From contig CBDCYI010000005.1 of assembly GCA_965224085.1 (NCBI GenBank), forward strand, positions 864,001 to 928,000: a stretch of 64,000 bases of DNA. Reading direction: 5' to 3'. Source of the DNA: Candidatus Marinacidobacterales bacterium. GTDB lineage: Bacteria; Acidobacteriota; Vicinamibacteria; Marinacidobacterales; SMYC01. The translations under genes and the position numbers were made by a program. This document shows, in pieces, positions 44,864 to 51,362 of the stretch (position 1 is its first letter; each line of letters opens with the position of its first letter). The notes under the pieces are model-generated. The model was not told the DNA's origin. It saw only the letters and a list, made by a program, of their open reading frames with translations, and did not search any database.

Positions 44864-45890
44864 ACTCGATCCATGCAGCGGGTTGTGAGAGTCTCAACTC
44901 GCTGCCGGACGGTAACCGCAAGGGGTTGGTGAGGGTATATTTTTCACGCCACTGAGCTCGGTAGTGCTCGATCACCAAGATCGGGTCGATGACTCCATCA
45001 GGGGTGACGACCTCGATACGGAGCGATCCGTTCACGTCGACCGGATCCGGGAAGAGGGCGACGAGCTCAATGTCTTCGTCGAAGGTGTGGATCGAGCTGG
45101 AAATGCGCGCCGATTGAACGGGAGTTGCGCCGCCTTCAAAGCGCAGTCCGATCTCGCTCCGGTCGGTGAATCGTTTCCCCTCGTCTTCCCAGCCTTTGAC
45201 GTAGAGAATCTCGACGGCCAAGTCGGCCCCTTTCGGGAGTACGTGGGCAAGCGTCACACTTCCCTGCCCCGGAAGCCACGTTGCGAGCAGCTTCGCGCTC
45301 GCGCAGGAGTCGCCGAGCCCGATCGTCGCACGGCGCATGAGCGTCGGCAGGCCGGGCTTGACCTCGAGCTCCGACACAGTGCGCGGCCCGGCCAAACCCG
45401 TGGGCAGCACGAGGCACTCCGTGAGCTCGTAATCGTCTTCGCCGATCACGATAGCGTCCGCGGGGGCCAATAGGAGGTCGGGCTTCTCCATTTGCCATCC
45501 CCCCGAGAACTCGGAAGCCTCGAGCTCCGCCGCTGTGAGAGGGGCTCCTTCCGGCGTCAAGCCCACCACCCAATCGATGATCATGTCGATCTCTTCGGGC
45601 GAGAGCGAGCGCGCATGCTGGAAAGAGCCAATACCATCCGCGGGGAGCCACGGAGGCATTTGCTCACCGAGAACCTGCATTTTGATCGCGTTGGCCCAAG
45701 GCACGGCCGATTGGTAGTCGAGCAGCGACATCGGCCCCGCGCCGCGTGCGTGGTGACAGCCACCGCAATGGGTTACGAATATGGGACGCAGGTGCCTCTT
45801 ATAGTTGTAGCGCGAGGGACTGCCCTCATGCGCGGCCACTTGCCCCGCGCAGGCGAGCGCCAAAAACGTCCATGTCCATCTAATGCCCAC
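44832..45890 (-). CDS. Exported cytochrome c domain + degenerate copper-monooxygenase-like domain protein
   Basis: Signal peptide, CGGCH, GPMSL, MPPW, W.M.KPDL, W.PG, LPSGS. Confidence 0.65.
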   Translation of the reverse strand: MGIRWTWTFLALACAGQVAAHEGSPSRYNYKRHLRPIFVTHCGGCHHARGAGPMSLLDYQSAVPWANAIKMQVLGEQMPPWLPADGIGSFQHARSLSPEEIDMIIDWVVGLTPEGAPLTAAELEASEFSGGWQMEKPDLLLAPADAIVIGEDDYELTECLVLPTGLAGPRTVSELEVKPGLPTLMRRATIGLGDSCASAKLLATWLPGQGSVTLAHVLPKGADLAVEILYVKGWEDEGKRFTDRSEIGLRFEGGATPVQSARISSSIHTFDEDIELVALFPDPVDVNGSLRIEVVTPDGVIDPILVIEHYRAQWREKYTLTNPLRLPSGSELRLSQPAAWIEFIPVHRFSAE

Positions 45891-46899
45891 GTGCCGCCTC
45901 CAACTCCTGGATCGATTGCTCGAACAGCCGGTAGGCTTTTTCGACCTCGAGACGATTCCCCATGTCGCCGTAGACGTCGAGAAGCCAGGCAGCGCGAACC
46001 AGTTTCTTGGCAGGAGCGCTTACGCGCCCGCCTTCTTTCTCGTGGAGTACGAGAACGAGGTCTTTGGCTTCGAGCGCAGGGATGTACAGATCCGGCCACA
46101 CACCGCGCGCGATGAGCTCTTGGACCCGGGCGTCCCGATGCAGGATCGCCTCGAAGATCCCATCGGCCGTTTCGGGTACACGGGGGAGCACGATGGTCCT
46201 CACCGTCTCTTTGGCGGCCGCCATCTCAGAGGCGAAAATGAAGTCGAACCGCGCTTCATCTTCGTGCGAACCCGGGAAGCCGACATGCACGACGAGCTCG
46301 GTCGGATAGCTTTCAGGCACGCCGAGATTCGCGGTCAGGATCGCCGCCTCCGGTGCGGAAACGAGGGGCGTATCGCCGACGCGCGCTTCGAAGCCGCTCG
46401 CGTCGATGGGCTTGGTGAAGTCGTTATAGACAAAGAGCTGGAACGTTCCAGCGTCGTCGAGCGTGCCTTCGATGTGGTGAAATCCGTTCGGCGCCATGAA
46501 CAGGATGCCGCCATGCTTCGGGTTGTGGTCCCCGTGCGCCATTGCGATGCTACGCATGTGCAGGAGACTGCCGTCGGGACATTCGCCGTCGGGAAGGCTC
46601 GACGTCCGTTCCGGTTGTTCGGGACAGAACCACTCGAGCTCGCGCGTCGTGGGCACGAGGTTCATGTTGCAGATGGGGCACGAGCCGCGATCGTCTTCAT
46701 CGATGTGCTGGTGCATCGGACAGGAATAGCTCGGGACCAAGAGGCGCTGCACCATCTCGCGATCGCAGACGGAACAGTGAACGGGCCCGGTCGCCTGCTA
46801 GTCCCGGTGGACCGGACAAAGCCAGACTTCGAACGACTCACGCTCCACCGTTTGGAGGGGGGCGCTCAGTGCGAACACCAGAAACCACGCACTTATCAT
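45880..46899 (-). CDS. Exported heavy-metal-binding-repeat protein with an HGDHNPKH motif; in-frame TAG at codon 34
   Basis: ATG 46899 + signal peptide; WLCPVH..CSVC, YSCPMH..CPIC.M.L, WFCPE..CP; MAHGDHNPKHGG; TAG at 46798-46800. Confidence 0.7.
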
Positions 46900-46906
46900 G
46901 ACGCGG

Positions 46907-47398
46907 TTATTCTAACGCAACGGGCCGATCACGTTCCGTCAGGTTAACTACAATGGCGCGCGCGGCGCGGACTAGATTCTGCGGCGTGATCAAAATCTCT
47001 TGTCCCCAAACGCCGGCACCGACCCCGAGAAGGGGCTCCTCCATCAATGCTCCATCCACAAAGGAACGGAAGCCCGTCGGCTGCCAATGAAACGGTGGCA
47101 CAGACCCGATTTTGTACCCCGTGACTTCCTCGACCACCTCGGGACGAGCCATCTTGATGTTCCGATCGCCGATGGCTTTCTTCAGATTTCCCGACACGGC
47201 GCTGCGGTCACCGCCCACCATGACGAGGACGCGCTCGCTCGTGCCCGATTCGAAGACCAAAGTCTTGACCATCTGGTGCTCGCGAAACCCGAGCACGCGG
47301 GCCACGTTGGCGGCACCTTTGTCCGTCGTATCGGGAAACGCGCGCGTCTCGTAAGCGATCGCTTGTTCGTCCAAATGGATATGGGCTGGGAGCCTCAT
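46907..47398 (-). CDS. ybaK: YbaK/EbsC family aminoacyl-tRNA deacylase
   Basis: QMVKTLV, VTGYKIGSVPPF, VGAG..G..I. Confidence 0.8.
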   Translation of the reverse strand: MRLPAHIHLDEQAIAYETRAFPDTTDKGAANVARVLGFREHQMVKTLVFESGTSERVLVMVGGDRSAVSGNLKKAIGDRNIKMARPEVVEEVTGYKIGSVPPFHWQPTGFRSFVDGALMEEPLLGVGAGVWGQEILITPQNLVRAARAIVVNLTERDRPVALE

Positions 47399-47453: not shown

Positions 47454-47482
47454 TTGACACGCAGGCCGGCCGGCGTTAACTT
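47454..47482 (+). promoter_or_regulatory. Sigma70-type promoter upstream of the Met leader
   Basis: TTGACA (47454-47459), 17-bp spacer, TAACTT (47477-47482). Confidence 0.6.
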
Positions 47483-47531
47483 CAAGTTGTCTATTGGAGA
47501 TCAGGTTTTGAGATTGGCTAGGTTCCACCGA

Positions 47532-47591
47532 ATGTCGATGCCCGGCATGTTTATGCGCAGGCCGGGCAGCGCGCGTCGGCGGAGCGGATAA
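47532..47591 (+). CDS. Met-rich leader peptide MSMPGMFMRRPGSARRRSG
   Basis: Four ATG in the first eight codons; lies directly upstream of Met biosynthesis genes and overlaps alternative RNA pairings. Confidence 0.7.
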   Translation: MSMPGMFMRRPGSARRRSG

Positions 47592-47606
47592 CTACTTCTC
47601 GGCACT

Positions 47607-47691
47607 TCTCCTCTGGCGTCGCACCGCCCGGCTGTCCCCGCTGACACCGTCCGGTGCGCTTTTTGTTTCTAGACGTCATTTCCAGAGGAGA
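47607..47691 (+). terminator. Attenuator terminator nested in an SD-sequestering helix
   Basis: CGCACCG (47620-47626) / CGGTGCG (47652-47658), inner TGTC/GACA stem, then CTTTTTGTTT; TCTCCTCTGG (47607-47616) is the exact complement of CCAGAGGAGA (47682-47691). Confidence 0.7.
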
Positions 47692-47697
47692 TCCACG

Positions 47698-48456
47698 ATG
47701 TTCTATCCTTGTTTGGCTTCGGCCAATCTTCCCATCACCGTTCTCAAGTTTGGCGGCTCGGTCCTAGCGGGACCGGATGCACTGAGTGATGTCGTATCGG
47801 AGATCGAACGCACGGTTCGCCGTGGGCATCGCGTCGTCGCGGTCACGTCCGCCTTTGCGGGGGTTACTTCGCGGCTTCTCAAAAAAGCTCAGGAACGCTT
47901 TCGGGCGCCCGCGGAAAAATCGCTTGCGGGTCTTCTCGCCACAGGGGAGTCCCGCTCTGCGGCGTTTGTTTCCCTCGCCCTCGACGACGCCGGTATCCGG
48001 AACGAGCTGCTCGACCCGGATCGCATCAAGCTTCGCGTGCGCGGCGCTTGGCTCGACGCGGAGCCTATCGACGTCGACTTGGGCGCACTCGAAAAGGCGC
48101 TCATCGGGGCTCCTGTCATCGTCCTTCCGGGATACTTTGGACGCCGACGTGATGGCTCCCATGCCCTTCTCGGTCGAGGTGGCTCCGATCTCACGGCGCT
48201 ATTTCTCGCCGAGCGGCTCGGGGCTCGCGACTGCCGGCTCATCAAGGATGTCGACGGACTGTTCAATCGAGATCCAGCCACCGGCGGCGACGAGCTTCAA
48301 GCATTCACGGTCGCGAGCTTTCTGGAGCTTTCTGCGCTCGGCGGCGGACTCGTGCAGGCTAAAGCCATCGATTTCGCAAAAGCCCATGGGCTCGAGTTCA
48401 CGATCGCAACCCTTGCCTCGGATAGAGGGACGCTCATTGGCCCGGTGCGCTCGTGA
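47698..48456 (+). CDS. Aspartokinase-like protein, catalytic domain only (no ACT domains)
   Basis: VLKFGGSVL, VTSAF.G.T, LLATGE, LLGRGGSDLTA, IKDVDG. Confidence 0.82.
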   Translation: MFYPCLASANLPITVLKFGGSVLAGPDALSDVVSEIERTVRRGHRVVAVTSAFAGVTSRLLKKAQERFRAPAEKSLAGLLATGESRSAAFVSLALDDAGIRNELLDPDRIKLRVRGAWLDAEPIDVDLGALEKALIGAPVIVLPGYFGRRRDGSHALLGRGGSDLTALFLAERLGARDCRLIKDVDGLFNRDPATGGDELQAFTVASFLELSALGGGLVQAKAIDFAKAHGLEFTIATLASDRGTLIGPVRS

Positions 48457-49652
48457 GACGCCAGACCGAATATTTGCAATACGAGTCTTCGCCGGGAGAT
48501 CCACACCGCCCGAGTGCGACGCCTCTTTACCAAACGGCGACGTTCCGCCTCCAGGATGGCGCCGAGTTCGACTACTCCCGCTCCGGGAACCCGACGCGAT
48601 CGGTCGTCGAGGAGCAGCTTGCGGCCATCGAAAGGGGCACCGCGGGCTTCGCGTTTTCGAGCGGCATGGCAGCCCTCGATGCGGTGTGCTCGCTCGTCTC
48701 CGCCGGCGAAGAGATTGTCGCCTGTGTGGACTTGTATGGTGGTACATACCGGCTGCTATCCCACGTCGTCGCGCGGCGCGGGGTGCGGGTGCGTTTCGTG
48801 AACACGTCGGACGATTCGGTTCTCGTCGAAGCGCTCGAAAGAGCGCCCCGGCTCGTTCTCGTCGAAACGCCCACGAATCCTCTTCAGAGCGTAACCGATC
48901 TGTATCGATTGTCCGAGCTCGCGCGCGCACGTGGAAGCCTCGTTGCTGTCGACAACTCCTTGATGTCAGCCTATCTTCAAACACCGCTTCAATGTGGCGC
49001 GCATCTCGTGATCCACTCAGCGACGAAGTTTCTCAACGGGCATAGCGATGTGACCGCGGGCGCCGTGGTTACGAGCGACGCGGAGCTCGCGGAGAAAGTC
49101 CGCTTTCACCAAAACGCTACAGGGACCGCGCTCGCGCCATTCGAAGCCTGGCTTCTCGCGCGCGGCATGAAGACGCTCGCCCTCCGCCTCGACCGCCAGC
49201 AACGCAATGCCGAAGTGCTAGCTCGCTACCTGAGAGATCATGAAGCGGTGACCCGCGTTCACTATATCGGCCTCCCGGACCACCCCGGACGCGAGACCCA
49301 CAATCGCCAATCGCTCGGCCCCGGAGCCGTCATCGCGGTCGAGACGGGCTCGCTCGAGCGCTCCTTGGCTCTCGTCGAAGAAGCAAAGCTGTTCGACGTT
49401 ACCGTCAGCTTCGGCGGTGTGCGGTCGACGTTGAGCCTTCCCGCGAGGATGTCGCATGCGAGCATTCCCGAAGAAGTCCGCTCGAGGCGGCAATTCCCTG
49501 AAGATCTCATCAGGCTATCGATCGGGATCGAGCACCTCGAAGATCTTCGCGGCGACCTTTCTCGCGCACTCGATCGCGCGCTCGCCGCGTCGGAGCTTTT
49601 GGTTCGAAACGAGAACTCGCGGCTCGTATCCCGTGCTCGTGCACGTCGATAG
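48453..49652 (+). CDS. metC: PLP-dependent transsulfuration enzyme, probably cystathionine beta-lyase
   Basis: DYSRSGNPTR, SSGMAA, ETPTNP, HSATKFLNGHSDV, SFGGV.S, MSHASIP; metB cannot be excluded. Confidence 0.75.
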   Translation: MRRQTEYLQYESSPGDPHRPSATPLYQTATFRLQDGAEFDYSRSGNPTRSVVEEQLAAIERGTAGFAFSSGMAALDAVCSLVSAGEEIVACVDLYGGTYRLLSHVVARRGVRVRFVNTSDDSVLVEALERAPRLVLVETPTNPLQSVTDLYRLSELARARGSLVAVDNSLMSAYLQTPLQCGAHLVIHSATKFLNGHSDVTAGAVVTSDAELAEKVRFHQNATGTALAPFEAWLLARGMKTLALRLDRQQRNAEVLARYLRDHEAVTRVHYIGLPDHPGRETHNRQSLGPGAVIAVETGSLERSLALVEEAKLFDVTVSFGGVRSTLSLPARMSHASIPEEVRSRRQFPEDLIRLSIGIEHLEDLRGDLSRALDRALAASELLVRNENSRLVSRARARR

Positions 49653-50556: not shown

Positions 50557-51362
50557 ATTGCTGTCAAATTGAGCTGGTGACTGACAGAATGGTCCAATGA
50601 AGACCGATGCGCCAAGCTACCACGGCTATCGATTTCCACCGGAAATCATCAGCCACGCCGTCTGGCTCTACCACCGATTCTGCGTGAGCTTTCGAAACGT
50701 CGAAGAGCTGCTTGCTCAGCGAGGCATCACGGTTTCCTACGAAGCGATCCGACTTTGGTGCATCAAGTTCGGGCCGGAATACGCTCGGCGACTGAAGCGT
50801 CGGCAGGGTCGCCTTGGTGACACGTGGCACCTGGACGAGGTCTTCATAAAGATACAAGGCGAACGCCAATACCTCTGGCGCGCGGTAGACCAAGATGGTG
50901 ATGTGATTGATATCCTCGTCCAGCCTCGCCGTGATCAGAAAGCCGCCAAACGATTCTTCCGCAAGCTGTTGAAAGGGCAAGGCCGTCCGCCCTGGCAGCT
51001 GGTCACCGACAAACTGAGAAGCTACAGCGCCGCTCACCGCGAGGTCATGCCGTCCGTCGTCCACGACACTGACCAGTACAGAAACAACCTAGCCGAAGTC
51101 TCGCACGAACCGACGCGACAACGGGAACGACAGATGCGGAAGTTTAAAACTCCTTGGCAGGCGCAACGATTCTTGACCGTGCATGGACTCGTGCAAAACC
51201 TCTTTCGCGTCGGACGGCATTTGTTGCAAGCGCATCATCATCGGGAGCTACGAGACCGCGCTTTCATCGTCTGGCAGGAGGTAACCTGTGCCGTCCGATG
51301 AGAGCAAAGGAAATCAGCTCGACGCAATAGGTTCGCTCGCTCAACGTCAACTTGACAATACC
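50557..51362 (+). mobile_element. IS6-family insertion sequence
   Basis: Imperfect IRs TGCTGTCAAATTGA / TCAACTTGACAATACC; no target duplication seen. Confidence 0.85.
50597..51301 (+). CDS. IS6-family transposase (intact)
   Basis: GYRFPPEII..AVWLY.RF, WHLDEVF, YLWRAVDQDG, VTDKL.SY, NNLAEVSH. Confidence 0.95.
   Translation: MKTDAPSYHGYRFPPEIISHAVWLYHRFCVSFRNVEELLAQRGITVSYEAIRLWCIKFGPEYARRLKRRQGRLGDTWHLDEVFIKIQGERQYLWRAVDQDGDVIDILVQPRRDQKAAKRFFRKLLKGQGRPPWQLVTDKLRSYSAAHREVMPSVVHDTDQYRNNLAEVSHEPTRQRERQMRKFKTPWQAQRFLTVHGLVQNLFRVGRHLLQAHHHRELRDRAFIVWQEVTCAVR

Follow-up and report, generated by a model that had tools for sequence, protein, structure and literature searches.

A candidate methionine-codon attenuator ahead of an aspartokinase operon in one family of Acidobacteriota

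Introduction

Attenuation of transcription by a leader peptide is a textbook mode of regulation for the genes of Trp, His, Thr, Leu, Phe and Ile/Val biosynthesis. Methionine genes are usually controlled by MetJ/MetR-type proteins, S-adenosylmethionine (SAM) riboswitches or T-boxes, and attenuators with Met regulatory codons are rare, plausibly because every open reading frame (ORF) needs initiator Met-tRNA. The present study concerns a small, self-contained leader of about 210 nt that lies ahead of an aspartokinase gene in a 64,000-nt stretch of DNA from a Candidatus Marinacidobacterales bacterium of the phylum Acidobacteriota (assembly GCA_965224085.1, contig CBDCYI010000005.1, positions 864,001 to 928,000 of the forward strand; hereafter, the window). 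An earlier note, made from the letters of the window, had interpreted this leader as an attenuator that senses methionine through Met codons. Comparative evidence, all of it computational, supports that interpretation, and does so less strongly outside the genus to which the window belongs.

Among the closest described systems are the classical attenuators (trpL, hisL, thrL, leuL, pheL and ilvL), in which a short leader ORF enriched in codons for the end product is combined with alternative 1:2, 2:3 and 3:4 pairings and with an intrinsic terminator that precedes the structural genes, an arrangement that the present leader would share; in Escherichia coli thrLABC, the enzyme controlled is, as here, an aspartokinase isozyme. 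Another is E. coli metBL, an operon under MetJ that joins a methionine-specific aspartokinase isozyme to a pyridoxal-phosphate (PLP) enzyme of the Cys/Met family. The likeness to the present operon would lie in regulation by expression rather than by allosteric domains; metBL differs in using a protein repressor with SAM as corepressor, in the fusion of MetL to homoserine dehydrogenase and in its reversed gene order.

Earlier proposals for methionine itself are few. The earlier note knew of no characterised Met-codon attenuator, and a search of the full-text literature, with supplementary files outside its reach, found no methionine leader-peptide attenuator besides one unvalidated proposal, the "metL" peptide of Streptomyces lividans TK24. 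This leaderless 29-aa peptide was placed upstream of metNIQ in a transcriptome-based reannotation (PMC8079986). Like the leader described here, it is a proposed methionine-dependent leader peptide ahead of methionine-related genes (PMC8079986); unlike it, the S. lividans peptide has two internal Met codons and, according to its authors, is missing a typical Rho-independent terminator (PMC8079986). It controls an importer rather than biosynthesis, is unrelated in sequence to the leader described here and, in the main-text passages that deal with it, is based on one genome and comes with neither a comparative nor a functional test (PMC8079986). We regard it as a weak precedent in print. The polycysteine leader ORFs of mycobacterial cys operons also read a sulfur amino acid through its codons, and differ, as described in the available passages, in having runs of Cys, in having no conserved terminator hairpin and in belonging to another phylum (PMC1262725; bioRxiv 10.1101/834739). 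An actinobacterial survey, in the passages available, found methionine operons to have no conserved RNA structure upstream of them (PMC1262725). The corresponding passages of a 2010 survey of premature terminators mention no methionine leader, and state that almost no predicted attenuator in Acidobacteriota had an assigned function (PMC2965389).

Results

A Met-rich ORF and alternative RNA segments precede the aspartokinase gene

Each feature listed in the earlier note was re-read from the sequence and found at its place on the forward strand. The leader ORF (47508..47591; 27 codons and a TAA) opens with TTG 47508 and is preceded by a Shine-Dalgarno motif, GGAGA (47496..47500), that ends 7 nt before it. 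Translated with table 11 it reads LRLARFHRMSMPGMFMRRPGSARRRSG, with M replacing L if TTG is the start. The earlier note had begun the ORF at ATG 47532 and taken it to be 19 aa long, ending at TAA 47589-47591 and reading MSMPGMFMRRPGSARRRSG, with Met at codons 1, 3, 6 and 8. The Met codons and their coordinates stand, but this ORF is the 3' part of a longer one, in which the cluster at 47532..47555 (ATG 47532, 47538, 47547 and 47553) supplies codons 9, 11, 14 and 16. The TTG is in frame with the shorter ORF and is invariant in all eight of the related leaders described below, in which a GGAG-type motif lies 7-10 nt before it. Comparison of the sequences suggests that TTG 47508, rather than ATG 47532, is most likely the start.

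Overlapping the ORF is hairpin 1:2 (47521..47586). Its 5' arm holds segment 1 (TGCCCGGC, 47539-47546), which is complementary to GCCGGGCA at 47561-47568; its 3' arm holds segment 2 (GCCGGGCAGCGC, 47561..47572); and ATG 47547 and ATG 47553 are located in its apical loop region. Segment 2 has two alternative partners, segment 1 and segment 3 (GCACCGCCCGGC, 47621-47632), the latter including the sequence GCCCGGC (47626-47632) and forming part of the 5' arm of an intrinsic terminator (47620..47668; stem 47620-47658, T tract from 47660, tail TTTTTGTTT). Segments 1, 2 and 3 of the earlier note are present where it had placed them, although segment 2 and hairpin 1:2 are longer than it had described. 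Of the terminator, a consensus scan recovers no more than the upper stem (47639-47656) and the T tail. The terminator is enclosed by a further helix, the 5' arm of which is an anti-Shine-Dalgarno arm (47607..47619, UCUCCU ... UGGCGU, with the anti-Shine-Dalgarno sequence itself at 47607-47612) that pairs with 47673-47678 and 47686-47691; the 3' arm of this outer helix (47673..47691) contains the Shine-Dalgarno sequence of the kinase gene, GAGGAGA (47685-47691). The minimum free energy of the 216-nt leader is -88.1 kcal/mol, compared with -75.4 ± 4.3 for shuffled sequences (z = -2.94; 1 of 200 shuffles as stable), and the full terminator hairpin and hairpin 1:2 are both present in the corresponding fold.

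Upstream of these elements lies a promoter-like site (47454..47482), with TTGACA at 47454-47459, a 17-nt spacer and TAACTT at 47477-47482. The earlier note had called this a promoter. Both boxes are there, and a TTGAC[A/T] box and a TAnnnT box recur at the same place in all eight leaders, spaced 17 nt apart in seven and 16 nt apart in one (G004). A consensus promoter scan of the leader region reported no promoter, because TAACTT agrees with TATAAT at only three of six positions.

The leader is conserved at orthologous loci in four genera

A search with the kinase protein covered 41 genomes and returned orthologues of 64-94% identity from three genomes of the same genus (G002, G003 and G004) and from four genomes in three other genera of the family (G009, G010, G013 and G016). 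All seven orthologous loci bear the leader found in the window, so that eight genomes in four genera of a single acidobacterial family carry it, and a Met-rich upstream ORF, the recurrence of which the earlier note had proposed as a check, is present at each of the eight loci. The parts that are kept include the promoter boxes, the GGAG motif, the invariant TTG, the Met-rich frame, the anti-Shine-Dalgarno stretch and the Shine-Dalgarno sequence of the kinase gene. The orthologous leaders also contain GGCCGGGC, which in G004 is replaced by GGCAGGGC, and they have in common GCACCGCCCGGC ... CGGTGC followed by a T tract.

Several features of the alignment are those of a coding sequence. From the TTG the frame stays open for 27-34 codons in all eight leaders, and three types of peptide can be distinguished, which read, with M for the start, MRLARFHRMSMPGMFMRRPGSARRRSG (window), MSLQATSSRSSQMARQMPGMGMPWPGCAARLVMK (G009) and MNLLATPRKHMCSMYMPGPGRAARARET (G013). 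When the eight leaders are aligned with MAFFT, the gaps within the ORF are 3, 12 or 15 columns long, all multiples of three, and those beyond it are 1, 2, 4, 8-10 or 13 columns long. Across the eight ORFs all 30 ATG triplets fall in the reading frame and the two alternative frames have none; the 82-104 nt of leader 3' of each ORF contain either no ATG or one. Each leader has three to five internal Met codons in 26-33 codons, as against 1.58% ATG in the long ORFs of the genome, giving binomial P values for single leaders of 1.6e-4 to 8.7e-3, which were not multiplied because the leaders are kin. An M-x-M pair is fixed in 8/8 leaders, and the further Met codons lie upstream of it at positions that differ between genera; such movement is easier to reconcile with selection for Met codons than with selection on a fixed structure. 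The peptides of the different genera share the motif G-M-[FYG]-M-[RP]-x-[PQ]-G, with P-G in seven of eight. Judged from these patterns, the leader ORF looks translated.

The terminator state is supported by covariation, and a possible antiterminator keeps its complementarity

RNAalifold applied to the eight leaders returns hairpin 1:2, close to the tip of which lie the M-x-M codons, together with the terminator and the outer helix, in which UCUCCU/UGGCGU (47607-47619) pairs with ACGUCA/AGGAGA (47673-47691) and sequesters the Shine-Dalgarno sequence of the kinase gene. In this terminator-state structure 94.0% of the alignment cells are paired, compared with 37-50% when the 3' partners are slid by one to three columns, and its covariation score was reached by none of 500 shuffles. 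Eight of the 40 pairs are compensated, having changed on both sides: four at the base of hairpin 1:2, one in each of its upper helices and two in the outer helix. Helix by helix, the three helices of hairpin 1:2 (helices 1-3) are 87-96% paired and contain six of the compensated pairs, the outer helix (helices 4 and 5) is 96% and 100% paired, and the terminator helix (helix 6) is 100% paired in all eight leaders. Covarying stems were another check that the earlier note had named, and hairpin 1:2, the terminator and the outer helix are all borne out by their pairing and compensatory changes. In free folds the Shine-Dalgarno sequence of the kinase gene is paired with the anti-Shine-Dalgarno CUCC in seven of the eight leaders and with a different CUCC in G009.

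The antiterminator, which extends beyond the pairing given in the earlier note, would pair GCCGGGC-N-G[C/U/G]GC (47561-47572) with GCACCGCCCGGC (47621-47632). Over the eight leaders 93.2% of these positions can pair, as against 18-53% when the partners are slid, and the seven-nucleotide core is perfect in seven leaders and has one mismatch in G004; the complementarity of segments 2 and 3 pointed out in the earlier note is thereby kept. The 5' arm of the terminator is invariant, as is expected of a segment having two alternative partners, and its loop and upper 3' arm vary between genera.

Ribosome position is predicted to set the fold in the genus of the window

Folding was repeated with the nucleotides covered by a ribosome masked. 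Ribosome footprints known from the literature gave the extent of the mask, -15 to +9 nt around the A-site codon, and transcripts were cut just past segment 3 as an approximation to the moment of decision. In cut transcripts of the four genomes of the genus of the window, pairing 2:3 is absent from all four when no ribosome is present. With a Met codon in the A site, 2:3 formed at four of four codons in the window's own genome (G000) and in G002, at three of four in G003 and at two of three in G004, with 8-10 of the 12 nt of segment 3 paired to segment 2. When the stop codon occupies the A site, G000 and G002 refold the upper part of hairpin 1:2 behind the ribosome and lack 2:3, and in G003 and G004 the partners are scattered. 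When full leaders were folded with the ribosome at the stop, all eight formed the terminator. The automatic label of terminator or antiterminator given to full leaders is crude: G000 with the ribosome at M14 was labelled terminator and the drawn structure has 2:3. Weight was therefore placed on the cut transcripts and on the drawn structures. Only in the genus of the window does equilibrium folding speak for the switch.

Distribution of the leader and its likelihood by chance

A covariance model of the leader (R1; 152 positions) finds a single copy in each leader-bearing genome, including one in G000, and places the leader in 9 of the 19 genomes of the family. Across the 55 genomes of the order, R1 had no convincing match in the other two families, and it had no match in 150 other genomes sampled across the phylum. 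Five weak matches in the order (E 0.01-0.045, 21-22.5 bits) were left unexamined and treated as chance. The ninth genome of the family with a match (G001; L075, reverse strand, Met motif at about position 1542 of the reverse complement) has an orphan leader. It retains an intact promoter, Shine-Dalgarno motif, TTG and Met-rich ORF and has lost the terminator and the two genes, and the next ORF, of 454 aa, is on the opposite strand; it appears to be a deletion remnant.

A pattern scan of genome contigs returned 36 stretches. Six have acidobacterial titles, and four of these (L032, L054, L056 and L059) carry the leader; two of the records with leaders of this kind bear the title Candidatus Marinacidobacterales. 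The other two stretches (L038 and L058) have no start, terminator or other feature of the leader and look like chance matches, as the remaining 30, from other phyla, were assumed without inspection to be. A metagenome scan with the kinase protein turned up no further leader, its only matches being two weak relatives, 25% and 40% identical in parts. A look through sequencing runs for the stretch listed none of RNA. Contigs from four runs were compared with the leader; those that matched are short, low-depth pieces of relatives, and run X10 gave no match. In one of these runs (X12, a relative from a sediment metagenome) a loose end at window position 47515 has an ATG in place of the TTG start, with an agreement of only 0.7 in two records; it was given no weight.

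How often such an arrangement arises by chance was estimated from a stop-anchored scan of G000 for ORF tails with at least four ATG in eight codons. There are 50 such tails, and four have a terminator-like hairpin within 170 nt; three of these four are cases other than the leader, under long ORFs of at least 335 aa. A Met cluster with a hairpin can thus arise by chance once per genome, and it is its conservation and its position ahead of these particular genes that take the leader beyond chance. The same genome contains, at three places (C4:1482231-1482311, C5:1762957-1763037 and C11:764690-764770), an identical 26-codon ORF, MAMGRMRSMTPLRALAWLWPASRSRS, with a terminator-like hairpin 6 nt past its stop; it probably belongs to a repeated element.

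The operon, and a SAM-I/IV riboswitch before a homologous operon in a sister family

The first gene after the leader (47698..48456, forward strand) encodes a 252-aa protein, an aspartokinase catalytic domain that lacks ACT domains (Pfam AA_kinase, 1.9e-30). It aligns with about positions 3-241 of the 407 in the NCBIfam aspartate kinase models, at scores under their cut-offs. The second (48453..49652, forward strand) overlaps the stop of the kinase gene by 4 nt and encodes a 399-aa PLP enzyme of Cys/Met metabolism (Pfam Cys_Met_Meta_PP, 1.8e-123), the best model for which, cystathionine beta-lyase TIGR01329, reaches 454.4 bits, below its cut-off of 487.5. G000 has four Cys_Met_Meta_PP genes in all, and no Met-rich upstream ORF was seen when the regions upstream of the three others were read by eye.

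A sister family in the same order has, in four genomes, homologues of the ACT-less kinase at 43-44% identity. There the operon runs kinase, aspartate-semialdehyde dehydrogenase and a 452-aa Cys_Met_Meta_PP enzyme, and the kinase is extended at its N terminus by about 115 aa that match no known family. With PLP enzymes only 32% identical, the two families have operons that share the kinase and a partner of the same type and are not related as wholes. A SAM-I/IV riboswitch (RF01725) lies ahead of the sister operon at all four loci examined (L009 915-1027; L010 2690-2802, reverse strand; L011 1006-1107; L012 2690-2792, reverse strand), scoring 44.5-61 bits where the gathering score is 41.1. In the sister family 19 of 28 genomes have RF01725; none of 19 in the family of the window and none of eight in the third family do. 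G027 enters these tallies, that of R1 in the order and the kinase search only among the genomes without leader or riboswitch. The distribution of the Met leader across the order is the converse. The riboswitch resembles the present leader in being a 5' element placed to control an ACT-less aspartokinase and a Cys/Met PLP enzyme, and differs from it in sensing SAM directly by RNA and in having no ORF. By analogy, its presence may count as independent evidence for methionine-type control of the operon.

Known RNA families do not account for the leader. Rfam models matched nothing in the window at their gathering scores, and nothing between 47380 and 47760 at E values up to 10; searches of all of G000 with RF00162 (SAM-I), RF01725 (SAM-I/IV) and RF00634 (SAM-IV) gave no match. 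The earlier note had suggested using Rfam to exclude SAM and T-box elements, and none matched. Membership in the Rfam leader, SAM or T-box families is excluded by this lack of model matches.

Neighbouring genes

In G003 and G010, both single-contig genomes, the kinase gene (G003:C1:3537672-3538417 and G010:C1:4945934-4946675) gives a split match, with pieces meeting near residues 81-82 and 199-200, which a frameshift or an error in assembly could explain; the leaders ahead of both genes are intact. Divergent from the leader is a gene for a YbaK/EbsC-like aminoacyl-tRNA deacylase (46907-47398, reverse strand), a neighbour conserved in related genomes, and farther upstream is one for a protein with a heavy-metal-binding HMBD domain (45880-46755, reverse strand). 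An IS-type transposase (50597-51301, forward strand; DDE_Tnp_IS240, 8.8e-38) lies about 950 nt downstream of the PLP-enzyme gene. Between the two is a reverse-strand ORF of 255 aa with no Pfam match and a weak GspN-like NCBIfam match (E 1.3e-4).

Discussion

Sequence comparison argues that the leader is a ribosome-mediated transcription attenuator of the trp/his/thr type in which the regulatory codons are those for Met, a reading to which we give a probability of roughly 0.7. From the elements themselves, their conservation and pairing potential and the families of the two genes, we infer translation of the ORF, stalling, termination and a response to methionine as follows. Transcription would start a few bases past TAACTT, and a ribosome initiating at TTG 47508 would translate the 27-codon leader. 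With methionine plentiful, the ribosome would reach the TAA and the upper part of hairpin 1:2 would re-form behind it, holding segment 2; this would leave segment 3 to pair with segment 4, with termination by RNA polymerase at the T tract near 47660-47668. With charged elongator Met-tRNA scarce, the ribosome would stall at the Met codons (47532-47555) and occupy the 5' arm of hairpin 1:2, so that segment 2 (47561-47572) could pair with segment 3 (47621-47632) as it emerged, blocking the terminator and allowing the kinase and PLP-enzyme genes to be transcribed. The anti-Shine-Dalgarno helix is probably a second layer, which adds translational control or shuts off read-through transcripts.

A number of observations weigh against this reading. 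The eight leaders amount to about three sequence types from one family, and so to few independent lineages. No pair of antiterminator 2:3 has changed on both sides; because both sides are nearly invariant there is no covariation, and what speaks for 2:3 is conserved complementarity alone. The M-x-M codons lie within a self-complementary stretch, GCAUG-N-N-U-AUGC, so the conservation of the ATGs could partly serve the hairpin tip. Outside the genus of the window, cut transcripts of G009, G010, G013 and G016 pair 2:3 in almost every state, including those with no ribosome and with the ribosome at the stop, and among full leaders the terminator persists in G009 whatever the state, and G013 and G016 form the antiterminator even without a ribosome. 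Within the genus, G004 has one Met codon fewer, has changes in segments 1 and 2 and is predicted to form no antiterminator on the full leader. A longer mask (-15 to +14) covers segment 2 when the ribosome is at either of the last two Met codons, and the terminator then persists in G000. Fold prediction for release of the kinase Shine-Dalgarno sequence upon stalling was not consistent, and such release is not claimed. Finally, severe methionine starvation also lowers the charging of initiator tRNA, which would favour termination in a trp-type layout. Co-transcriptional kinetics, for their part, would favour the formation of hairpin 1:2 ahead of the other pairings.

Three other explanations were weighed. 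The leader might be a riboswitch of an undescribed class that binds SAM, methionine or a related metabolite, with hairpin 1:2 as aptamer and the ORF and its ATGs as structural by-products. Such a proposal would account for a highly structured leader with compensatory changes and for the pairing of the two best-conserved ATGs with each other in a palindromic hairpin tip; a terminator combined with Shine-Dalgarno sequestration is a common expression platform, and a SAM riboswitch occupies the equivalent position in the sister family. It does not, however, explain why all 30 ATGs share one frame, why that frame is open in every leader with gaps in multiples of three, or why the upstream Met codons shift position between genera. 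Moreover, the conserved positions are explained by the start codon, the Shine-Dalgarno motif, the helices and the Met codons, with no conserved unpaired core seen, and Rfam gave no match even at the most permissive threshold used. We consider a riboswitch improbable. Also improbable is a general translation-coupled leader, in which the ORF, terminator and Shine-Dalgarno helix would tie expression to ribosome traffic or to translation of the leader, the Met codons being non-specific. The conservation of that helix together with the terminator, and the failure of equilibrium folding to separate stalled from unstalled states in four of the eight genomes, count in favour of such a leader; it leaves unaccounted for a Met enrichment that is both conserved and in frame, ahead of a methionine-branch operon with a relative under a SAM riboswitch.

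The peptide itself could be the sensor, as in the nascent-peptide arrest of the TnaC/SpeFL kind, if the signal that made the core M-x-M followed by P/R-x-P-G stall the ribosome were a free small molecule and not the charging of tRNA. The RNA layout would suit antitermination driven by arrest equally well, and the peptide motif is kept across genera, down to the P-G of seven leaders. Against this, the P-G codons overlap segment 2 (CCGGGC), which is itself under pairing constraint, so that conservation of these amino acids may be secondary; the peptide varies freely beyond its core; and Met enrichment at movable positions is a better fit to the sensing of codons. An arrest sensor, too, seems to us improbable.

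As an attenuator of this type, the leader would depart from its classical counterparts in several respects: its regulatory codons are Met codons, its ORF starts with TTG, its host is an acidobacterium, the apical loop region that separates segments 1 and 2 contains the last two of those Met codons, and an extra anti-Shine-Dalgarno:Shine-Dalgarno helix encloses the terminator. Nor does it match the Rfam models Trp_leader, His_leader, Thr_leader or Leu_leader. The mechanism would thus be a known one, and its amino-acid specificity, for Met, would be new or nearly so, with support from comparison of related genomes. We incline to the view that this is the first comparatively supported attenuator to read the charging of elongator Met-tRNA, that it replaced, or was replaced by, a SAM riboswitch within one order, and that it adds Shine-Dalgarno sequestration to the classical design.

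If this reading is correct, methionine supply can be read directly at the ribosome, and leader-peptide attenuation would extend to the Acidobacteriota. Close relatives would in that case watch one pathway from separate points, charged tRNA in one and SAM in the other. A Met leader in one family and a SAM-I/IV riboswitch in its sister, each placed before a homologous ACT-less aspartokinase, would constitute a natural experiment on the sensing of tRNA versus the sensing of a cofactor.

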